DNA of 64,000 nucleotides from Gemmatimonadota bacterium (lineage in GTDB: Bacteria; Gemmatimonadota; Gemmatimonadetes; Palauibacterales; Palauibacteraceae): contig OZ220691.1 of NCBI GenBank assembly GCA_965116475.1, positions 1,280,001-1,344,000 on the forward strand. The letters are read 5' to 3'. The position numbers were made by a program, and so were the translations under genes. The notes under the pieces were generated by a model. The model was not told the DNA's origin and made no database searches. It worked only from the letters and a program-made list of their open reading frames with translations. This document shows positions 7,905 to 47,881 of this stretch, in pieces. Numbering within the stretch: position 1 is the stretch's first letter; each line of letters starts with the position of its first letter.

Positions 7905-7922
7905 ACGTTCCCGCGGGAACGT
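7905..7922. repeat. 18-bp perfect palindrome, copy 1 of 3
   Basis: ACGTTCCCGCGGGAACGT in the 31-bp gap between convergent genes; identical at 42596 and 43591. Confidence 0.95.
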
Positions 7923-39273: not shown

Positions 39274-40449
39274 ATGAGGATTCCGTCCAGCTACGCTGAA
39301 GGGTACGAGGCGGCGCGCGCCGTCGATGCCCGCTTGGCGGACGATTTCATCCGTCATACGACCCTCGGCGACCCCCTTGCCGATCGCGTCGTCGAGGACC
39401 TCGCGGCCACCTGTGCCCCCGGGGAGGTGCATCCGCTCATCGCGTCGGCGCTGCGGGATCCGCCTCAGTTGCCCGACGGCCTGCCCGACTCCCTCAGGGA
39501 GTTGGTGAACGAGGTATCCGTCATTCCGGACTGGTACGATCCGAAGCTGGCGCAGGCCGCCACGCGCGGCTTCATCCGCAATTCGAGCATCATCCCGGCG
39601 GCCCTGGCCGGGGCCGCGATCGTGGAAGGCTTCTCGACGCTGATCAGCAAGTCTTTCCGGATTCGGGGCCGCATCACTCAGAACGGGGTCCGCCGCCTCC
39701 GCCAGAACCTGCTGCACCTGGCCGACCAGTATCTCCCCGGCGGGATGGAACCGGGCGGAGACGGATGGAGACTGACGCTTCGCATTCGACTGGTGCACGC
39801 GCAGTCGCGGATGCTGCTCAAGGACTCCGAAGAATGGGACACGGCGGCGCACGGCATGCCGGTCAGCGCCGCCCACATCATGCTCGCCTCGACCACCTTT
39901 TCGGCGCGTCTCCTCCAGCACGCCAGGCGCCTCGGCGCCAAGTTCAGCGACATGGAGTGGGAGGGCTACGTCCACGTGTGGAGATATACCGCCTGGATCA
40001 TGGGCGTCCCGGTGGAGATCCTCTTCGAGGACTACGAGGACGCACGACGCAGGTTCGAGATCGGGATGTTGTGCGAGCCCGTCCCGGACGACGATGCCAT
40101 CATCATGGCGAACAGCATCGTGAACAGCGCTCCGCTCCTGCTGGGCGTCAAGGACCCCAAGGAACGCCGGCCCTTCGCCACGTTCATATACCAGGTGTGC
40201 CGCGAACTGGTCGGAGACGAGCTGGCCGACCAGTTCCTGTTTCCCCCATCCCGAAGGGTCCGGCAGGTGCCGCTGCTGTGGTTGAAGCACCGGCTGCGGA
40301 GGGTGGCGCTCGAGCGGATTCCGGGATTCCACAAACTCGATTCGGGGTACGACTACATGGAAATGCTCGACATCTCCAACGTGGGCGATTTCGAGCAGTC
40401 CTACAGCCTGCCCACCACGCTCCACGACGAAGCGTCCCGGCCCTGGTAG
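39274..40449 (+). CDS. MpaB/rubber oxygenase (Lcp)-like DUF2236 family oxygenase
   Basis: GDPLADRVV, PDWYD, RIRLVHAQSR, HGMPVS, WRYTAWIMGVP. Confidence 0.8.
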   Translation: MRIPSSYAEGYEAARAVDARLADDFIRHTTLGDPLADRVVEDLAATCAPGEVHPLIASALRDPPQLPDGLPDSLRELVNEVSVIPDWYDPKLAQAATRGFIRNSSIIPAALAGAAIVEGFSTLISKSFRIRGRITQNGVRRLRQNLLHLADQYLPGGMEPGGDGWRLTLRIRLVHAQSRMLLKDSEEWDTAAHGMPVSAAHIMLASTTFSARLLQHARRLGAKFSDMEWEGYVHVWRYTAWIMGVPVEILFEDYEDARRRFEIGMLCEPVPDDDAIIMANSIVNSAPLLLGVKDPKERRPFATFIYQVCRELVGDELADQFLFPPSRRVRQVPLLWLKHRLRRVALERIPGFHKLDSGYDYMEMLDISNVGDFEQSYSLPTTLHDEASRPW

Positions 40450-40456
40450 GCGCTGC

Positions 40457-40487
40457 TACCGAAGCAGTTACCGAAGCAGTTACCGAA
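40457..40487. repeat. 12-bp tandem repeat x2.6 including the amidohydrolase stop codon
   Basis: taccgaagcagt taccgaagcagt taccgaa. Confidence 0.85.
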
Positions 40488-41865
40488 AACTGAGGGCGGA
40501 CTGGTCGCGGCCGCCGACCATGATGAACGCCACGTTCCCCATGTCGCGGATATTCTCGTCGGGCCGGCCGTCGATGGCGATGATGTCCGCAAAGCGGCCC
40601 GGCTCGACCGTCCCCACTTCATCCTCGATCCCCACGATCTCGGCGTTCAGCCCCGTGGCCGCCGTGATCGCTTCGAGCGGCGTGAACCCCGCGGCGACGA
40701 GGTTCTCCATCTCCAGCAGCATGTACCCGTGCATGCTGTCCGTTCCGATGCCGACCTTGACGCCCTTCTCCTTCGAGCGGCGAAGCTGTCCGAGGCGGTC
40801 GAGCCGCCGCTGCGCCCGTCCCGGATTCTCTTCGAGGGCCCGCCCGTGCACCTGGCGTCCGCGCTCGAGCCAGTCGCCGATGTCGCCGGCCTCGTTGTCG
40901 AGGAAGCCCCACTCGTTGAAGACGCTCTGGAAGCCGATGGTGTAGGTGTTCACGAAGCCGACGTCGCGACTCGCCATGAGGTCCATCAACTCTTCGTTGA
41001 GGTTCCCGCCATGCTGGATCGAGTTGACTCCCGCCTCGACCGCCAGGCGGATGGACTCTCCGTTCGCGTGCGCCGTGGCCTCGATCCCGAGCCGGTGCAG
41101 TTCGTTCACGGCCGCGTCGATCTCCTCCTTCGTGTAGTTGCTCTCGCCCGGCGCGTACGGGGTGCCGTTGTTGGGCCCCACCCGCGCGCGGTCGGTGATC
41201 GTCAGCTTCATGTGGTGCGCCCCCATCTCGTAGTTCTGCCGGACGAACGTGCGCATCTCCCACGGTCCGTTGGTGGTCCGGTATTCCGCCGGGCCGTGGC
41301 CGGCGGTGGTCGAGATGAAGTTGCCGCTGGGATAGATCCGGGGGCCCGGAACGATCCCCTCCGCCACGGCCTGCGAGGCCTGTATGTCGTTGTAGTGGAC
41401 CTCGCCGACCACGTACACGCTCGTGACGCCGGACATGAGCTGAACCCGGATGTTCCGGATGATGCGCGCCATCTGCATGGCGTCGTGCTGCTCCATTCCC
41501 TCGAGCTGGCCCCGCAGCGTGCGAACGTCGGGCCGGATCGAGAGGTGCGCGTGCGCGTCGACGATCCCGGGCATCACGGTGTGTTCGCTCAGGTCGATGA
41601 CCCGGGCGCCGGCCGGGATCGCGATGGCCGCCGCGTCGCCCACGGCCTCGATCCGCTCGCCGCGCACGATGATCACCTGGTTGTCGCGCGCCGGCTGGCC
41701 CGCGCCGTCGATGAGCCGGCCGGCCCGGATCGCCGTCACTTCCTGGGCCGCCGGGGCGCGGGCGGCAGCCATCGCGGGGGCGGCGCCGTACGCCGAAGAA
41801 GGGGCGGAGGGGACGAAGGCCGCGGCCAGCACCGCGGTCCGCAGGGTCATCGCTGTCGTTCGCAT
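40480..41865 (-). CDS. Secreted amidohydrolase family protein
   Basis: PGIVDAHAH, TAHA, SIQHG, IGTD, GTVEPGRFADIIAIDGRP. Confidence 0.9.
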   Translation of the reverse strand: MRTTAMTLRTAVLAAAFVPSAPSSAYGAAPAMAAARAPAAQEVTAIRAGRLIDGAGQPARDNQVIIVRGERIEAVGDAAAIAIPAGARVIDLSEHTVMPGIVDAHAHLSIRPDVRTLRGQLEGMEQHDAMQMARIIRNIRVQLMSGVTSVYVVGEVHYNDIQASQAVAEGIVPGPRIYPSGNFISTTAGHGPAEYRTTNGPWEMRTFVRQNYEMGAHHMKLTITDRARVGPNNGTPYAPGESNYTKEEIDAAVNELHRLGIEATAHANGESIRLAVEAGVNSIQHGGNLNEELMDLMASRDVGFVNTYTIGFQSVFNEWGFLDNEAGDIGDWLERGRQVHGRALEENPGRAQRRLDRLGQLRRSKEKGVKVGIGTDSMHGYMLLEMENLVAAGFTPLEAITAATGLNAEIVGIEDEVGTVEPGRFADIIAIDGRPDENIRDMGNVAFIMVGGRDQSALSFR

Positions 41866-42010
41866 CGGACGCTCCTCGAGTCGGCGGATGGTGGGCGGAC
41901 GGTTATCCTCTGAAGATTGACGCTATCGTCCGCGTGGGGCCAGCATGACGGCGCTATACTGCCGGTTCCGCAATCCTCGCCAGCTGTAGCTCCCAAGGCC
42001 GTTGACGACC

Positions 42011-42085
42011 CTCACACTGCCATCGGTCACGCTGCCACCGGTCACGCTGCCACCGGTCACGCTGCCATCGGTCACGCTGCCATCG
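42011..42085. repeat. 15-bp tandem repeat x5 at the 3' end of the HNH gene
   Basis: GTCACGCTGCCAYCG units at 42026, 42041, 42056, 42071, and a variant at 42011. Confidence 0.95.
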
Positions 42086-43463
42086 GCCTGGTCTCGTACT
42101 GTCCCCAGAGGACCCAGAGCGCCCAGTCGAGGTCCAGCGGGTCGCCCATCCAGAGGCTCGTTGCCGTCCAGGGGTCGATCCCCTCCTGCCGGTGCCAGTT
42201 CCCGAGTCCCGCATCGGCGGTTCGGGGCGCCCTGACGTCTTCGCGTGCCGGGGGCACCGCCGGTACCACGCGCCCGTTCGGATCGCGGAAGCGCGCCGCG
42301 CCCGCCTCCTCCATCTCGACGCGCCAACCGCCCTCGTGCACGGCCCTGTGATGGAACCGGCACAGGAGGATCAGGTTGTCGAGCTTCGTCTCGCCCCCCT
42401 CGGACCAGGGGATGGCGTGATGGGCCTGCGTGTAGCGCGAGCCGCAGCCCGGGAAGCGGCAGCCCCCGTCCCGGACGTCGAGCGCCTTGCGCAGCCGCCA
42501 CCCCACCGTCCGCTGGCGGCGGCCCACGTCCAGCACCGAGCCGTCCCGCCCGCGCTTCACCTCCACGGTCTCCGCGTCGCAGGCCAGCCGCCGGGACGTT
42601 CCCGCGGGAACGTGTGAGCCGTCCTCCGTGGCCAGGATTTCGGGGCCGCCGGCCACGGTGTGGACCACCAGTTGCGCCCTCGCCTCGGCACGCTCCTCGA
42701 GCCACGCCCCGAGCGCGTCGTGGCGCCGCTCCGTCGGACTCGGCCGGAGCCCGGGCGTCGGCGTCGGCTGGGGCCCGGGCTGGGGCCCGGGCGTCGGCGG
42801 GGCCGGCTCCCCCGTGGCGGCATCGGCCTCGCGCTCCATGGCGGCGTCGGCCTCGCGCTCCATGGCGCGCTCCTGCCGGTGGAGTTCGTCCACGGTGACA
42901 TCCAGCGTCTCCACGAGCAGGGCGCCCACTTCGGGCATGAGCAGGCCCCGGAGTTCGTACATGCCGTCATCCGTCACCCGGACCGTCAGGTGACGGCGGG
43001 CCGCCATCTCCGACGTGTCGTCCAGCGCCGCCATGGCGGCCTCCGCGCTCTTCGCCGCCCGCACGAAGCGCTCCACCTGGCTCGCCGTGTGGTGGAGGGC
43101 GAACTCGACCAGCCGCGCCTCGTCCTCGGCGGTGACCATGCGCGTCAGCGCCCGGACCTTGGACCAGGAGAGCCGGCCCTTCTCCATCTCGGCGGAGGTC
43201 AGGGGCAGGTCGGCGAGGCGGCGGGCCGCCCGCAGCCGCTCGCGGGCCCCGCCGAGGGAGATGCCGGCGCGCCAGTTCAGCCAGTGGGCGCAGGAGCGCC
43301 ACCCGCTCCAGCGTTCCTCTTCATCGTAGCGGCGCAGCAGCGTCAGGAGCCGATACTGGGCGGCGTCGATATGGGCGCACAGCTCGGCGATCTCGTCACC
43401 CACGGGGTCGCCGGCCAAGGCAGCGGGGTGCGAGGCGGCGGAAGGGTCAGGCGTCTCATGCAT
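42072..43463 (-). CDS. DUF222-domain HNH endonuclease (13E12-repeat-like family)
   Basis: SCAHWLNWRAG, GRLSWSKVRALTR, RRLACDA, RDGGCRFPGC...AHH...WSEGGET.LDNL.LLCRFHH..VHE. Confidence 0.9.
   Translation of the reverse strand: MHETPDPSAASHPAALAGDPVGDEIAELCAHIDAAQYRLLTLLRRYDEEERWSGWRSCAHWLNWRAGISLGGARERLRAARRLADLPLTSAEMEKGRLSWSKVRALTRMVTAEDEARLVEFALHHTASQVERFVRAAKSAEAAMAALDDTSEMAARRHLTVRVTDDGMYELRGLLMPEVGALLVETLDVTVDELHRQERAMEREADAAMEREADAATGEPAPPTPGPQPGPQPTPTPGLRPSPTERRHDALGAWLEERAEARAQLVVHTVAGGPEILATEDGSHVPAGTSRRLACDAETVEVKRGRDGSVLDVGRRQRTVGWRLRKALDVRDGGCRFPGCGSRYTQAHHAIPWSEGGETKLDNLILLCRFHHRAVHEGGWRVEMEEAGAARFRDPNGRVVPAVPPAREDVRAPRTADAGLGNWHRQEGIDPWTATSLWMGDPLDLDWALWVLWGQYETRPMAA
42596..42613. 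repeat. 18-bp palindrome, copy 2 (inside HNH CDS, encodes HVPAGTS)
   Basis: ACGTTCCCGCGGGAACGT. Confidence 0.95.
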
Positions 43464-43588
43464 GGCGTTCTCATCCGAATCTCAGGGTTCAAAGGGGGTA
43501 CGCACTCATACCCCGATCTTCGGTAAATGTTCGGGTTTCATCTCAACACGGTCTCAACGGCGGTCTTCAACGGGGGTCTCAGCGTCCG

Positions 43589-43610
43589 GGACGTTCCCGC
43601 GGGAACGTCC
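43589..43610. repeat. Palindrome copy 3, extended to 22 bp, upstream of HNH gene
   Basis: GGACGTTCCCGCGGGAACGTCC. Confidence 0.95.
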
Positions 43611-43659
43611 GCGGCCAGTCAGCCGGTACAGCTAGCCGCTTCGCCGCCCTGTCCGCTGC

Positions 43660-43864: not shown

Positions 43865-46162
43865 GTGCAAAACCTGATCTCGGTTAGTGCCGGACGGCGG
43901 ACCGCGCTGCTGGCCCTCTTCTTTCTGTCGGGGGTCAGCGGGCTGATCTATCAGATCGCCTGGGTGCGGCAGTCCGTCTTCACGTTCGGGGTCAGCGTCT
44001 ACGCCTACAGCACGGTCATCGGAGCCTACATGATCGGGCTCGCGCTGGGCAGCTACGTGATGGGCAGGCGAATCGACGGGCACGCGCGGCCCCTGGGCAC
44101 GTACGCGGCACTCGAAGTGGGGATCGCGGCGCTCGCGGCGCTGTCGCCGTTCCTGCTCGGGGCCCTGCACGCGATCTACCCGGGACTCAGCAACGCCCTC
44201 CCGGCCGGCGGTTTCTGGCTCACCCTGGGGCGGCTCCTGCTCTCGCTGGCCGTGCTCACGCCGACGACCTTCCTCATCGGGGCCACGCTGCCCGTCATGA
44301 GCCGAATCTACGCGACGCACGGCGGGCGCGTGGGAAGCGACGTGGGGCGACTCTACCTCGTGAACACGGCGGGCGCCGCCCTCGGCTGTGTGCTCACGGG
44401 ACTCGTCTTCCTCCGGTACCTGGGCGCGCGGGAAACCATCTTCCTCGGCGCGGCGATCAATCTCTTCGTTGCAGCGGGGGCGCTCGCGCTCATGCGGCTG
44501 GCGGCCCGGGCCCCGCAGGCGGACGGCGCGGCGAACGGCGACGGGACGGCGAACGGCGACGGCGCGACGGATGCGGCTGTGGCCGCACCGGCTGCCGGAA
44601 CCGCGGCGGCCGCGCTCCCGATCTCTCCCGCGGCGCTGCGCTACGTCGCGATCGCCTACGCCATCTCCGGCTTCATCGCGCTGGGCTACGAGGTGGTGTG
44701 GGCGCGGATCCTATACATCCACTCCTCGCACGCGGCGTACTCGTTCTCGCTCATGCTGACGGTCTTCCTGGCCGGGCTCGCGCTCGGGGGCGCCGGCGGG
44801 AGCTGGGTCCTGCGGCGGAGACGGGCCACGCTGAGGCACTTCGGGGCGATCCAGCTCGCGATCGGACTGCTGGCCGTCCTCATCCTCCACGCCTTCGCGC
44901 GACTCCCCGCGCTCCATCTGGACGACTGGTTCGGCGGTTACACCGTTGCCTACGAGTTCCTCATCGCCTTCGTCACGCTCTTTCCCCCCACCGTCCTTCT
45001 CGGGGCGCTGTTCCCCGTCGTCGGGAGCCTGTACACACGCGAGCGGGCGCGGGCCGTGGGGCTTCGCATCGGCCGCGTGAATGCGTTCAACACGCTGGGA
45101 GCCATCGCGGGCTCGCTCGGCGCGGGGTTCGTGCTCGTGCCGCTCCTCGGACTCCGCAATACGACGGTGGCGCTGGCGGTGCTGAACCTCGCGCTCGGCG
45201 CCGCGGCGCTGCGCTTCGACCGCGGGGGCCGGCGGGCGCTGCGCTTCGCGCCGGCGGGCGCGGTGGTGGCCACGATCGTGGCGGTCGCGATCCTCCCCAC
45301 CGGCTTCTACCTCGGCTCGTACTACACCGAGACCGACCGGCTCATCTTCTACAAGGAGGGCGTGGAGACCACCGTCGCCGTGCTCGAGGTTCCGGAGGAC
45401 AACTACAAGATCTCCTTCGTCAACGGCCGCGACGAAGTGCCGACGGACCGCGCGAGCATGTCGGCGTTCCGGCTGCTCGGACACCTTCCGCCGCTGCTCC
45501 GGCCCGGCGCGCGCAACGCCCTGGTCCTGAGCTTCGGCAACGGGATCGCCACCGGGACGATGAACACGCACGGCATCCCCGTCATCGACGCGGTGGACCT
45601 CTCTCCCGAGATGATCGAGGCGGCCGAGGTCTACGCCGAGGAGAACTACGACGTCCTCGACAGCGACCGGCTGCGGCTGCACGTCGAGGACGGGCGGAAC
45701 TTCCTGCTGCGGGCGGAGGCGTCGTACGACATCATCTCGGTGGACGCGACGCACCCCGCGAACGCGAGTTCATGGGCGCTGTTCACGAGCGAGTTCTATC
45801 AGTTGATCGAGAGCCGCCTCGCGGAGGACGGCGTCTTCATGCAGTGGATCCCGATCCACGGCGTCCGCGAAGATGACTATCGCGACATCCTGCGGACCGT
45901 CTGGGACGTCTTCCCCAACATGGTGCTGTGGTCGACCGGATCGACGCACAGCTACGTCGTCGCCACGCGCGAACCGCTGTCGTCCGTCGTGATGCAGTCG
46001 GTGCTCACGCGCGCCGCCGCCAACCCGATCGTCGTCCGGGACCTCGGATCGCCGGAGACGATCGCCGGCTACGTGGCGATGGCCGAAGGGGACCTGACGA
46101 GCTACATCGGGCGCGGCCCCGTCATCACGGACAACGACGCCTTCTTCATGCCCGCCCGCTAG
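43865..46162 (+). CDS. Fused multi-TM membrane / spermidine synthase-like methyltransferase
   Basis: LFFLSGVSGLIYQIAW and GFIALGYEVVW repeats; C-terminal VEDGRNFL, YDIISVD, LFTSEFY, GVFMQW. Confidence 0.88.
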   Translation: MQNLISVSAGRRTALLALFFLSGVSGLIYQIAWVRQSVFTFGVSVYAYSTVIGAYMIGLALGSYVMGRRIDGHARPLGTYAALEVGIAALAALSPFLLGALHAIYPGLSNALPAGGFWLTLGRLLLSLAVLTPTTFLIGATLPVMSRIYATHGGRVGSDVGRLYLVNTAGAALGCVLTGLVFLRYLGARETIFLGAAINLFVAAGALALMRLAARAPQADGAANGDGTANGDGATDAAVAAPAAGTAAAALPISPAALRYVAIAYAISGFIALGYEVVWARILYIHSSHAAYSFSLMLTVFLAGLALGGAGGSWVLRRRRATLRHFGAIQLAIGLLAVLILHAFARLPALHLDDWFGGYTVAYEFLIAFVTLFPPTVLLGALFPVVGSLYTRERARAVGLRIGRVNAFNTLGAIAGSLGAGFVLVPLLGLRNTTVALAVLNLALGAAALRFDRGGRRALRFAPAGAVVATIVAVAILPTGFYLGSYYTETDRLIFYKEGVETTVAVLEVPEDNYKISFVNGRDEVPTDRASMSAFRLLGHLPPLLRPGARNALVLSFGNGIATGTMNTHGIPVIDAVDLSPEMIEAAEVYAEENYDVLDSDRLRLHVEDGRNFLLRAEASYDIISVDATHPANASSWALFTSEFYQLIESRLAEDGVFMQWIPIHGVREDDYRDILRTVWDVFPNMVLWSTGSTHSYVVATREPLSSVVMQSVLTRAAANPIVVRDLGSPETIAGYVAMAEGDLTSYIGRGPVITDNDAFFMPAR

Positions 46163-46307: not shown

Positions 46308-47588
46308 CTACGCCCGCAGGGTACTTCGGCAGGCCTCAGCGCGCGCTCCGATCTTCTCTTCCAACGGACCCAGGATCGCGTGGTCGAGGCCTTCCACGCG
46401 GGCGGCCGAGACGATTCCAGGCAACCGGCCGGCAACGTCGACGGCAACGGTCTCGCACAACGCAAACACCTCCGCGGCGGGGAGCCCGACTTCGCCGGCG
46501 AAACGTGCCCAGTGCCTCACCTGGATGTATCCCAGACGCGCTTCGCCGCCGATCTTCGCCGCCAGTTTGAGTCTCGGCTCGTAGTGGCCGGGATAGGGCA
46601 GCACGCTGGCCACATCGTACAGAGGGGCGAGGGACGCCTTCCCGCCGGCCCCAATCAACAGAGAGAAGTTCTTCGCGTGCGCATCGGTCCCACCGATGAT
46701 CCAGTTCAAGGCGAGCGCGCGGACGAAGGTCCGGAGGTCGCGCCCGGGACGGCTGGACCAGGTCCGGATCGCGTGGGCCATGCGGTCGCAGCCCGGACCG
46801 CCGTCGCCCTCGTACTTCGCGGTCGGCGCCAGTCCGAGGGCCTGGCAGAGATCTTCCTGGTGGACTCGCACAATACCGTCCGCGGTGCCGACCCGATCGT
46901 ACCGCTCCACCACGAGCGCCGGCTCTTCGCCGAACCGGCGCACGCTCGAGCGAGCCGCGGGGATTCCGACCGCGCGGGCCAGCGTCAGGCAGAGATGTTC
47001 GTTCTCGCAGTGTCCGGGAAAACCCGGAATCGGAGGTTTCAGAATGTGCGTCGTGGGTGTGCAACCGCGGGGCACTCCCCAACGCCCTTCGCTGAAGTAC
47101 AACGCCGTCTTGGCCTGTGCGCCCGCCAGGCTGAACCGGCCGGAGTCACCGGGGAGACGCCACGCGCTCCCATCCTCGTTCAGCACGCGCAGGCGTGCGC
47201 CGACCTGCTCCTCCGTCAGCCAGTCGACCTCCCGCGTTCGCGGGCCAAGCAGGCGGTCGACGCGGTCGGGTGCCGCGAACTGGACTCCGCCCGAGCAGTC
47301 CTCGCCCGTTGCCCCCAGCAGCGAGAATGCGCTTAGCGCGGAGACTTGAAAGCGTCTTGCCCATCTGGCGAGAACATTCTCGTTGTCGGGGAGGAGTCCC
47401 CACAGCCACGGTTCGATGACGTCGTGGCCGTATTCGGCGCCGACGAGAGACATCGACAGGGAAAGCGGGTACGCCCCCGGCGCCTGCCGCCACGCTTCAT
47501 CGTATGAGAAGGCCAGCCGCCCGCGCGCGTGGCGCGTGACGTGGCCCATCACCTCCCCGTTCGCCACCGCGATGAGGCGTTCGGTCAC
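46308..47588 (-). CDS. hipA: HipA family kinase toxin
   Basis: LLPDN, SLAGAQAK, THILKP, HQEDLCQALG, TDAHAKNFS, LAPLYD. Confidence 0.93.
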   Translation of the reverse strand: MTERLIAVANGEVMGHVTRHARGRLAFSYDEAWRQAPGAYPLSLSMSLVGAEYGHDVIEPWLWGLLPDNENVLARWARRFQVSALSAFSLLGATGEDCSGGVQFAAPDRVDRLLGPRTREVDWLTEEQVGARLRVLNEDGSAWRLPGDSGRFSLAGAQAKTALYFSEGRWGVPRGCTPTTHILKPPIPGFPGHCENEHLCLTLARAVGIPAARSSVRRFGEEPALVVERYDRVGTADGIVRVHQEDLCQALGLAPTAKYEGDGGPGCDRMAHAIRTWSSRPGRDLRTFVRALALNWIIGGTDAHAKNFSLLIGAGGKASLAPLYDVASVLPYPGHYEPRLKLAAKIGGEARLGYIQVRHWARFAGEVGLPAAEVFALCETVAVDVAGRLPGIVSAARVEGLDHAILGPLEEKIGARAEACRSTLRA

Positions 47589-47881
47589 GGCGCCGGGTCT
47601 TCGTGGGCCCTGACGACCGCCTCAACGTCGGGCACGGCAATCCGGACGCGGGAACCCGACGGCTCCGGGATACCCTCGCCGTGGACCGACAGCGACAGGT
47701 CGACTGCGGCAAGCACCTGAAACGCCTTGCCCAGTTCGGCTCGCGGCTTGCCGGCTTCGATGGCCACGATCCACTGTCGACCCACGCCGGCCGCTCGTGC
47801 CAGATCCGCCTGCGTCATGCCTCGGGCCTGCCTGGCCCGGCGGATCAGGAGGCCAAGTTCGAGGGGAGTGCGAAACTGCAA
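47585..47881 (-). CDS. hipB: HipB-like XRE antitoxin
   Basis: MTQADLARAAGVGRQWIVAIEAGK HTH; GTGA overlap with hipA. Confidence 0.88.
   Translation of the reverse strand: MQFRTPLELGLLIRRARQARGMTQADLARAAGVGRQWIVAIEAGKPRAELGKAFQVLAAVDLSLSVHGEGIPEPSGSRVRIAVPDVEAVVRAHEDPAP

Follow-up and report, generated by a model that had tools for sequence, protein, structure and literature searches.

A multi-copy DUF222-HNH cassette of Gemmatimonadota that carries, and may disperse, a candidate palindromic binding site

REP and REPIN sequences, the partners of RAYT proteins, are dispersed extragenic palindromes that are biased towards the 3' ends of genes, are sometimes paired, and flank a nuclease gene. Free-standing HNH homing endonucleases join an HNH domain to a separate DNA-binding domain, and homing destroys the target in the allele that carries the gene. 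A further relevant group is the DUF222-HNH family, which is large (27,144 clusters at 50% identity match at E ≤0.001, HNH-only matches included) and for which no biochemical function was found in the literature searched. Its 13E12 repeats are induced by damage and lie at inversion breakpoints in M. tuberculosis; recombination between copies (PMC13157036), a prophage attachment site within a repeat (PMC3381160) and LexA binding at six 13E12-family loci (PMC3381160) are reported for that species.

We analysed a member of this family in a 64-kb stretch of DNA, here called the window, from a Gemmatimonadota genome (G000) that consists of a single 3.62-Mb contig and is 96% complete. The features discussed below are as follows.

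42072..43463, minus strand: DUF222-HNH gene, 463 aa, one of seven full copies in the genome, which also holds one fragment
42336..42461, minus strand: HNH nuclease domain, residues 335-376, from Pfam and alignment
43011..43418, minus strand: helical domain, residues 16-151, predicted ParB/Noc/KorB DNA-binding fold
42596..42613, no strand: internal 18-bp palindrome, in frame as (H)VPAGT(S), in rare codons
43589..43610, no strand: upstream palindrome with its extension to 22 bp, close to where homology between copies stops on the 5' side
7905..7922, no strand: free-standing palindrome in the gap of a convergent gene pair, whose ends lie 6 and 9 bp away
43519..43534, minus strand: predicted LexA box CCGAA-N6-CCGAA (GAAC-N7-GAAC type), shared with the upstream regions of lexA and, with one mismatch, of recA
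43541..43584, minus strand: GTTGAGA-type units at 10-13 bp spacing, their number varying between copies
42013..42086, minus strand: 15-bp tandem duplications across the stop codon, five units, fewer in other close copies
41984..41998, no strand: cassette 3' end motif, CTGTAG[A/C]TGCCA type after a YAR triplet, from comparison between copies
43627..43635, no strand: short sequence (TACAGCTAG) that matches the end motif in inverted orientation, likely cassette 5' end

The window protein has DUF222 followed by HNH, with Pfam matches to PF02720 at residues 29-332 (E 3.3e-23) and to HNH at residues 335-376 (E 3.1e-8), and its close named homologues belong to Ca. Palauibacter (Gemmatimonadota). The catalytic and zinc residues of the HNH domain are intact: C335, C340, H348, H349, N363 and C368 are invariant among 128 aligned proteins, and H371, H372 and H376 nearly so. 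IscB and McrA contain the nearest solved HNH domains. Structure prediction gave a homodimer, with helix 20-46 as part of the interface, and a fold that includes a ParB-type helix-turn-helix DNA-binding domain. The ParB_N CTPase domain had no Pfam match in the protein, in which only about 19 residues precede the helical domain, and the host parB is the sole match to PF02195 in the genome. In Pfam searches the window protein likewise had no match to a transposase domain.

The 18-mer ACGTTCCCGCGGGAACGT occurs exactly at 7905, 42596 and 43591, and a search of the window that allowed up to three mismatches returned only these sites. Shuffled windows contained 0.07 copies on average, with three or more in none of 100 shuffles, which bears out the claim of an earlier note, made from the sequence alone, that three exact copies are not a matter of chance. 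That note also read the internal copy as HVPAGTS directly before RRLACDA and extended the upstream copy to 22 bp; the codons (CAC GTT CCC GCG GGA ACG TCC) agree with the first reading and positions 43589-43610 with the second, and 127 bases separate the upstream 18-mer from the ATG. What it missed was the scale, since the genome contains 85 sites within two mismatches (45 exact, 35 with one mismatch and 5 with two). GTTCCCGCGGGAAC is the commonest 14-bp palindrome in the genome, with 76 copies against 8 for the runner-up. All seven full genes contain the internal site in frame, the fragment has the site as well, and six of the seven full copies have a second site 124-157 bp before the ATG. By our own simple gene caller, 65 of the 85 sites are intergenic, and 24 of these lie between convergent genes, an arrangement that accounts for 260 of 1892 gaps genome-wide. 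Free sites between co-directional genes are nearer to the stop codon than to the next start in 23 of 25 cases, the other two being promoter-proximal. Conservation stops sharply at 16-18 bp; across 140 half-sites, no base is fixed outside the central 18-20 bp.

Some other sites are in frame inside other genes, mostly as DVPAGT. In-frame (D/G)VPAGT sites in unrelated predicted host genes were noted at G000:C1 627913, 707890, 953587, 1667505, 2760487, 2760550 and 3271210, several being conserved in the relatives G022 or G016. Two-palindrome mini-elements with a 35-55 bp CCAGT..ACTGG spacer stand at G000:C1 1407584/1407636, 1597511/1597584, 2760487/2760550 and 2892913/2892965, and also at L131; they resemble two cassette 5' ends placed head to head, and where one genome has the pair, another can have a single palindrome at the orthologous locus. 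The G022 ortholog of the 7905 site is present and doubled.

The explanation that we favour, and to which we give a little over even chances, is that the gene's own protein binds the palindrome and that a damage-inducible selfish cassette spreads itself and its site by nicking and repair. Binding by the gene's own protein is the likelier part of this proposal, and the most economical way to explain a two-fold, loopless, parS-like 16-mer within and before the gene of a predicted ParB-type dimer; spreading by nick and repair, given such binding, seems to us evenly balanced. Two observations weigh against the proposal: the recognition helix shows no co-variation with the site, and three genomes contain sites without a detectable gene. 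The cassette is regarded as the source of the free sites because it is multi-copy, ragged-ended and SOS-boxed, has left relics, and correlates in number with the sites. After DNA damage, LexA would leave the cassette promoter, and the dimer would dock on the upstream and internal sites, damping its own expression and marking the cassette. HNH nicks near bound palindromes could then start recombination or template-switch synthesis, and host repair would copy the DNA, so that the cassette, or a part of it with a site, is placed immediately behind stop codons; ragged ends and short tandem duplications would result. LexA repression, perhaps with self-repression, may be part of what keeps the nuclease from cutting at 85 sites. 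It is a more tentative suggestion that DUF222-HNH constitutes a new mobile class, in which a CTPase-less ParB-derived dimer joined to an HNH nickase is released by the SOS response and seeds its parS-like site without transposase, integrase or reverse transcriptase, here yielding about 70 conserved docking points on the scale of Noc.

The anatomy of the cassette bears on its induction. The direct repeat CCGAA-N6-CCGAA, which was absent from the earlier account of this locus, sits between the upstream palindrome and the ATG in six of the seven gene copies; it stands twice upstream of lexA, and a match with one mismatch upstream of recA was read by eye. Read on the other strand, it resembles the Caulobacter direct repeat GTTC-N7-GTTC (PMC9578287). 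Given that the box is shared with lexA and recA and that LexA binds 13E12-family loci, we predict from the sequence that the cassette is induced by damage through LexA release, and that the palindrome is not the LexA operator. Away from the cassettes the box has 12 other exact intergenic matches, of which two are those at lexA and seven precede genes without a clear damage role; a weak GIY-YIG match, a DinB-family gene and a radical-SAM gene with a weak photoproduct-lyase match follow one each. The box is a candidate LexA box for the lineage, of the alphaproteobacterial direct-repeat type (G000:C1 651839-651876, upstream of recA near 859670, 1034160 and 3202468), and our literature search listed no paper on it. 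The GGTCT(T)CAACG-like units reported earlier at 43541-43584 are visible as CTCAAC-type units; read as GTTGAGA-type units on the gene's strand, they are probably promoter elements, and a similar pair lies upstream of recA. The tandem amplification of the 3' end, also noted before, comprises four 15-bp units at 42013-42072 and a fifth that covers the stop codon.

Comparison of loci suggests that the cassette moves. Four relatives lack it at the window locus, where they have a different 214-bp gap, and gene positions differ among close relatives. Conversely, copies in relatives map to gene-less loci of G000, with a free site at the match in one case (L022) and not in three others (L018, L191 and L021). 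Four of five empty orthologous loci lack the palindrome, and the loci are unrelated to one another. Five of the seven copies end against a convergent gene. The 3' end motif is common to four of the seven full copies and is found in the fragment and in one relic too. The 3' ends and some 5' ends are marked by an imperfect inverted motif that follows a YAR triplet, and three relics retain a site plus one end. Certain free sites that are single in one genome occur in another as a pair with a short spacer between them. The empty sites showed no consistent target duplication, and no excised form of the cassette was seen. By sequence comparison, then, the cassette exists in several copies, is missing where relatives have the orthologous loci, and has left visible relics among the free sites.

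The neighbours are an Lcp/MpaB-type oxygenase gene (39274-40449), an amidohydrolase gene (40480-41865) and a membrane-fused spermidine-synthase-like gene (43865-46162). In four cassette-less relatives the amidohydrolase and spermidine-synthase-like genes stand side by side. A HipA-like kinase (Pfam HipA_C, Couple_hipA) is encoded at 46308-47881 on the minus strand, with a 98-aa HipB-type-looking reading frame before it; this locus is likely a hipBA toxin-antitoxin pair, 2.7 kb from the cassette.

The predicted LexA box at six of seven copies could instead point to a domesticated damage-response factor; at the dispersed sites, maintained because they benefit the host, it would act as a repressor or as an anchored nickase for repair. 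The strong conservation of the free sites, the binding of LexA at six 13E12-family loci in M. tuberculosis (PMC3381160), a protein tree that broadly tracks host phyla and the shared fold of KorB, a repressor, are all consistent with this. Yet promoter-proximal positions are avoided (2 of 25), six of the G000 copies form one recent clade on the tree, gene positions vary between close relatives, and 7 of 24 congeners have no match to the protein. We consider domestication unlikely.

Conservation of the free sites was followed from two relatives, G022 and G016, whose sites were picked as perfect, their G000 counterparts not being so selected. Among 67 sites fetched, 18 had no syntenic pair, 42 were kept in G000 (41 of them perfect) and 7 were not, so that 42 of 49 syntenic sites were retained. 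Across 26 intergenic ortholog pairs the 16-bp core showed 1 mismatch in 416 positions, and bases 2-6 outside it were 75% identical. G000 had none of 24 possible symmetric double variants, against 12 sites with one mismatch. The near-identity of the core beside 75% flanks, together with the lack of symmetric double variants, implies that something sequence-specific holds the free sites in these gene-rich lineages.

Such retention is what might be expected if a host chromosome-organising factor (Noc-like or SlmA-like, or a loosely binding host ParB) owned the site and the gene were a mimic or a passenger, and the persistence of sites in three genomes without a detectable gene would fit as well. 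The terminus fifth of the replichore is also poor in sites in all four single-contig genomes (8 of 85, 2 of 40, 4 of 47 and 2 of 35), as for NBS (PMC4331003). However, a rotation test that preserves clustering finds no significant depletion (p 0.09-0.29), the origin fifth is poor in sites as well, and none of the four genomes has a cluster of sites at the origin. The host parS, present twice in G000 (1769087 and 1769156, beside parB and dnaA), differs from the palindrome at 6 of 14 positions. Both GC skew and gene-strand bias are pronounced towards the ends of the G000 contig, where the terminus lies, and almost flat in the region of dnaA (1.77 Mb), and 1.26 Mb separate rpoB from the origin; the skew pattern and the position of rpoB suggest many inversions.

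The distribution of site variants argues further against a host-owned site. The exact C variant is found in 16 of 24 congeners (7-67 copies) and is missing from the other 8 and from all 16 next-family genomes, and the DUF222-HNH protein is found in 17 of 24 congeners and none of the 16. In a search of 30 genomes, the S variant replaced C in four congeners, at 2-16 copies, and the genes of these four are divergent. Variants were also tracked in 50 more genomes (50 loci chosen from 71): all 16 genomes that have an A-type or A-like gene contained the A variant, which none of the 19 T-type genomes did, and the T variant was present in 18 of these 19 and in 3 of the 16. Site counts in these genomes are small (1-23, the gene itself included); among 136 sites listed from 17 genomes, 71 are free-standing, and dispersal to 18-74 copies was observed only in the window's genus. 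There, the number of perfect sites correlates with that of gene loci (rho 0.91, n=16, the genomes being kin and not independent). The earlier note had proposed to check whether extragenic copies co-occur with DUF222-HNH genes; variant tracking and the copy-number correlation say that they mostly do, although 3 of the 16 site-bearing relatives (G008, G011 and G023) have no detectable gene. Individual genomes depart from the pattern: all exact sites in G194 are distant from its 19 profile matches, T sites outnumber A sites in G169, and decayed sites are as numerous in G020, whose gene is intact, as in genomes that lack the gene. Overall, variant tracking and copy number support a gene-repeat partnership at the level of genome sequence, and with the site variant following the resident gene we regard ownership by a host factor as distinctly improbable. 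The 17 and 19 profile matches in G163 and G194 include shorter DUF222-HNH paralogues that end near profile position 420; most of these lack an exact site of the three variants searched, indicating a second subfamily.

The internal site could be placed in 111 of 118 loci (8 from G000, 30 from congeners and 80 further ones), 108 rows being long enough for a tree and spanning several phyla; actinobacterial members are hardly sampled, with one Acidimicrobiia genome. The 16-bp palindrome is perfect in 62 of the 108 homologues, another 38 retain 6-7 of its 8 pairs, and in 8 it is gone. Five perfect variants occur: CGTTCCCGCGGGAACG (21), CGTTTCCGCGGAAACG (20), CGTTTCAGCTGAAACG (15), CGTCTCCGCGGAGACG (4) and TGTTTCCGCGGAAACA (2). 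Pairs 1/16, 4/13, 5/12 and 7/10 co-vary above shuffles (p < 0.001; 89 distinct N-terminal rows, kinship ignored). On a tree made by a quick method with the motif columns removed, and with many forks open, the silent double change to TCA GCT arose in at least six places and VPAGT in three; at L020 the gene returned to the T variant inside the VPAGT clade, and the upstream site changed along with it. The palindrome codons are rare in G000, where GTT makes up 3% of Val codons, TCA and GCT 2% each of theirs, and GGA 12% of Gly codons. Among 149 distant representatives VSAET is read in 35, VPAET in 9 and VPAGT in 2, with other residues in most, and the VSAET DNA is GTTTCCGCGGAAAC in many genes, as the earlier note had suggested. 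Its argument that compensatory change implies selection on the DNA stands, in that compensatory doubles recur on the tree and support a DNA-level constraint on the palindrome. Synonymous changes that freely break the palindrome, named there as an observation against the idea, are not the rule given 62 perfect sites in 108 and the compensatory changes, although 8 are lost; the constraint is not universal, VSAET being kept in ordinary codons at L102 and L106. Seven gammaproteobacterial loci (L070, L082, L086, L087, L099, L110 and L124) have two to four palindromes per gene, at about -200 to -240, 0, +370 to +390 and +426, in more than one frame.

Symmetry of this kind might also arise if the palindrome acted as a structure, that is, a cruciform or hairpin in DNA or mRNA of the REP-like kind, with template-switch correction and gene conversion, in place of protein recognition, preserving its symmetry. 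Symmetric site changes that leave the recognition helix unchanged fit a structure, as do the 24 of 65 intergenic sites in convergent gaps, the 23 of 25 co-directional ones nearer a stop, and the paired sites around a CCAGT..ACTGG spacer. But the palindrome has no loop, and pair 7/10, beside the two-base centre, co-varies, which fits a two-fold duplex better than a hairpin. Moreover, with 0 of 24 symmetric double variants in G000 against 12 one-mismatch sites, self-correction is not diversifying the free sites; conservation stops sharply at 16-18 bp; and a Y1 (HUH) transposase (PF01797) had no match in G000, the control having matched in 6 of 14 genomes. A structural role is therefore a poor candidate. 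Finally, the palindrome as this lineage's LexA operator, suggested by its place upstream of a gene family that LexA controls elsewhere and raised in part by the earlier idea of an autoregulatory or SOS-type operator, is effectively refuted, since it is not upstream of lexA or recA, both of which have CCGAA-N6-CCGAA, and the SOS part of that idea fails with it.

With binding by its own protein as the preferred reading, a predicted ParB-type dimer and a 16-bp candidate site would give a testable function to a large family for which none was found. If the reading is true, the ParB/Noc family extends to a nuclease, a binding site is held across phyla under the double constraint of protein code and DNA symmetry, and dispersed palindromes have a source besides REP-RAYT. 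No paper pairing DUF222-HNH with this palindrome was found in the literature searched, supplements and subscription journals excepted.

The cassette shares with 13E12/REP13E12 (DUF222 PF02720, HNH PF01844) its Pfam domains, its multiple copies and predicted LexA control. A cognate palindrome, a ParB-type domain and a mobility mechanism do not appear in the descriptions consulted, and the in-frame palindrome marks only part of the DUF222-HNH family. With ParB-parS, Noc-NBS and KorB-operator it shares the predicted fold and dimer and a 16-bp two-fold site close to parS and NBS, and the number of sites is similar (about 70 NBS, 74-85 here). Unlike ParB and Noc, the protein lacks the ParB CTPase domain and a ParA neighbour and has a C-terminal HNH domain, its sites lie within its own gene and do not cluster at the origin, and the site centre is GC rather than the CG of parS and NBS. 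The resemblance to parS, once proposed as mimicry, is better read as kinship of the protein's own domain with ParB; mimicry directed at the host ParB is the less likely reading.

Like REP-RAYT, the system has extragenic, 3'-biased and sometimes paired copies; unlike it, the enzyme combines HNH with a helical binding domain in place of a Y1 (HUH) transposase, and the site is translated within the enzyme. REP is an imperfect looped hairpin with a fixed 5' tetranucleotide, whereas the palindrome here is perfect and loopless and has no fixed tag. From the earlier idea of a REP/RAYT-like system the gene-repeat partnership survives and RAYT membership does not, no Y1 transposase having been found in G000 and the enzyme being different. 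HNH homing endonucleases share the intact catalytic and zinc residues, and a nick or break followed by host repair would be the common route of spread; the cassette differs in keeping an intact site within and beside the gene and in having copies at many unrelated loci. Compared with a DDE insertion sequence, its end motif is imperfect and recurs at the 3' ends but only at some of the 5' ends, and the empty sites show no consistent target duplication. The cassette is a member of DUF222-HNH (13E12), probably like ParB, Noc and KorB in its working though not a ParB, and like REP-RAYT in its layout though not a REP-RAYT system.
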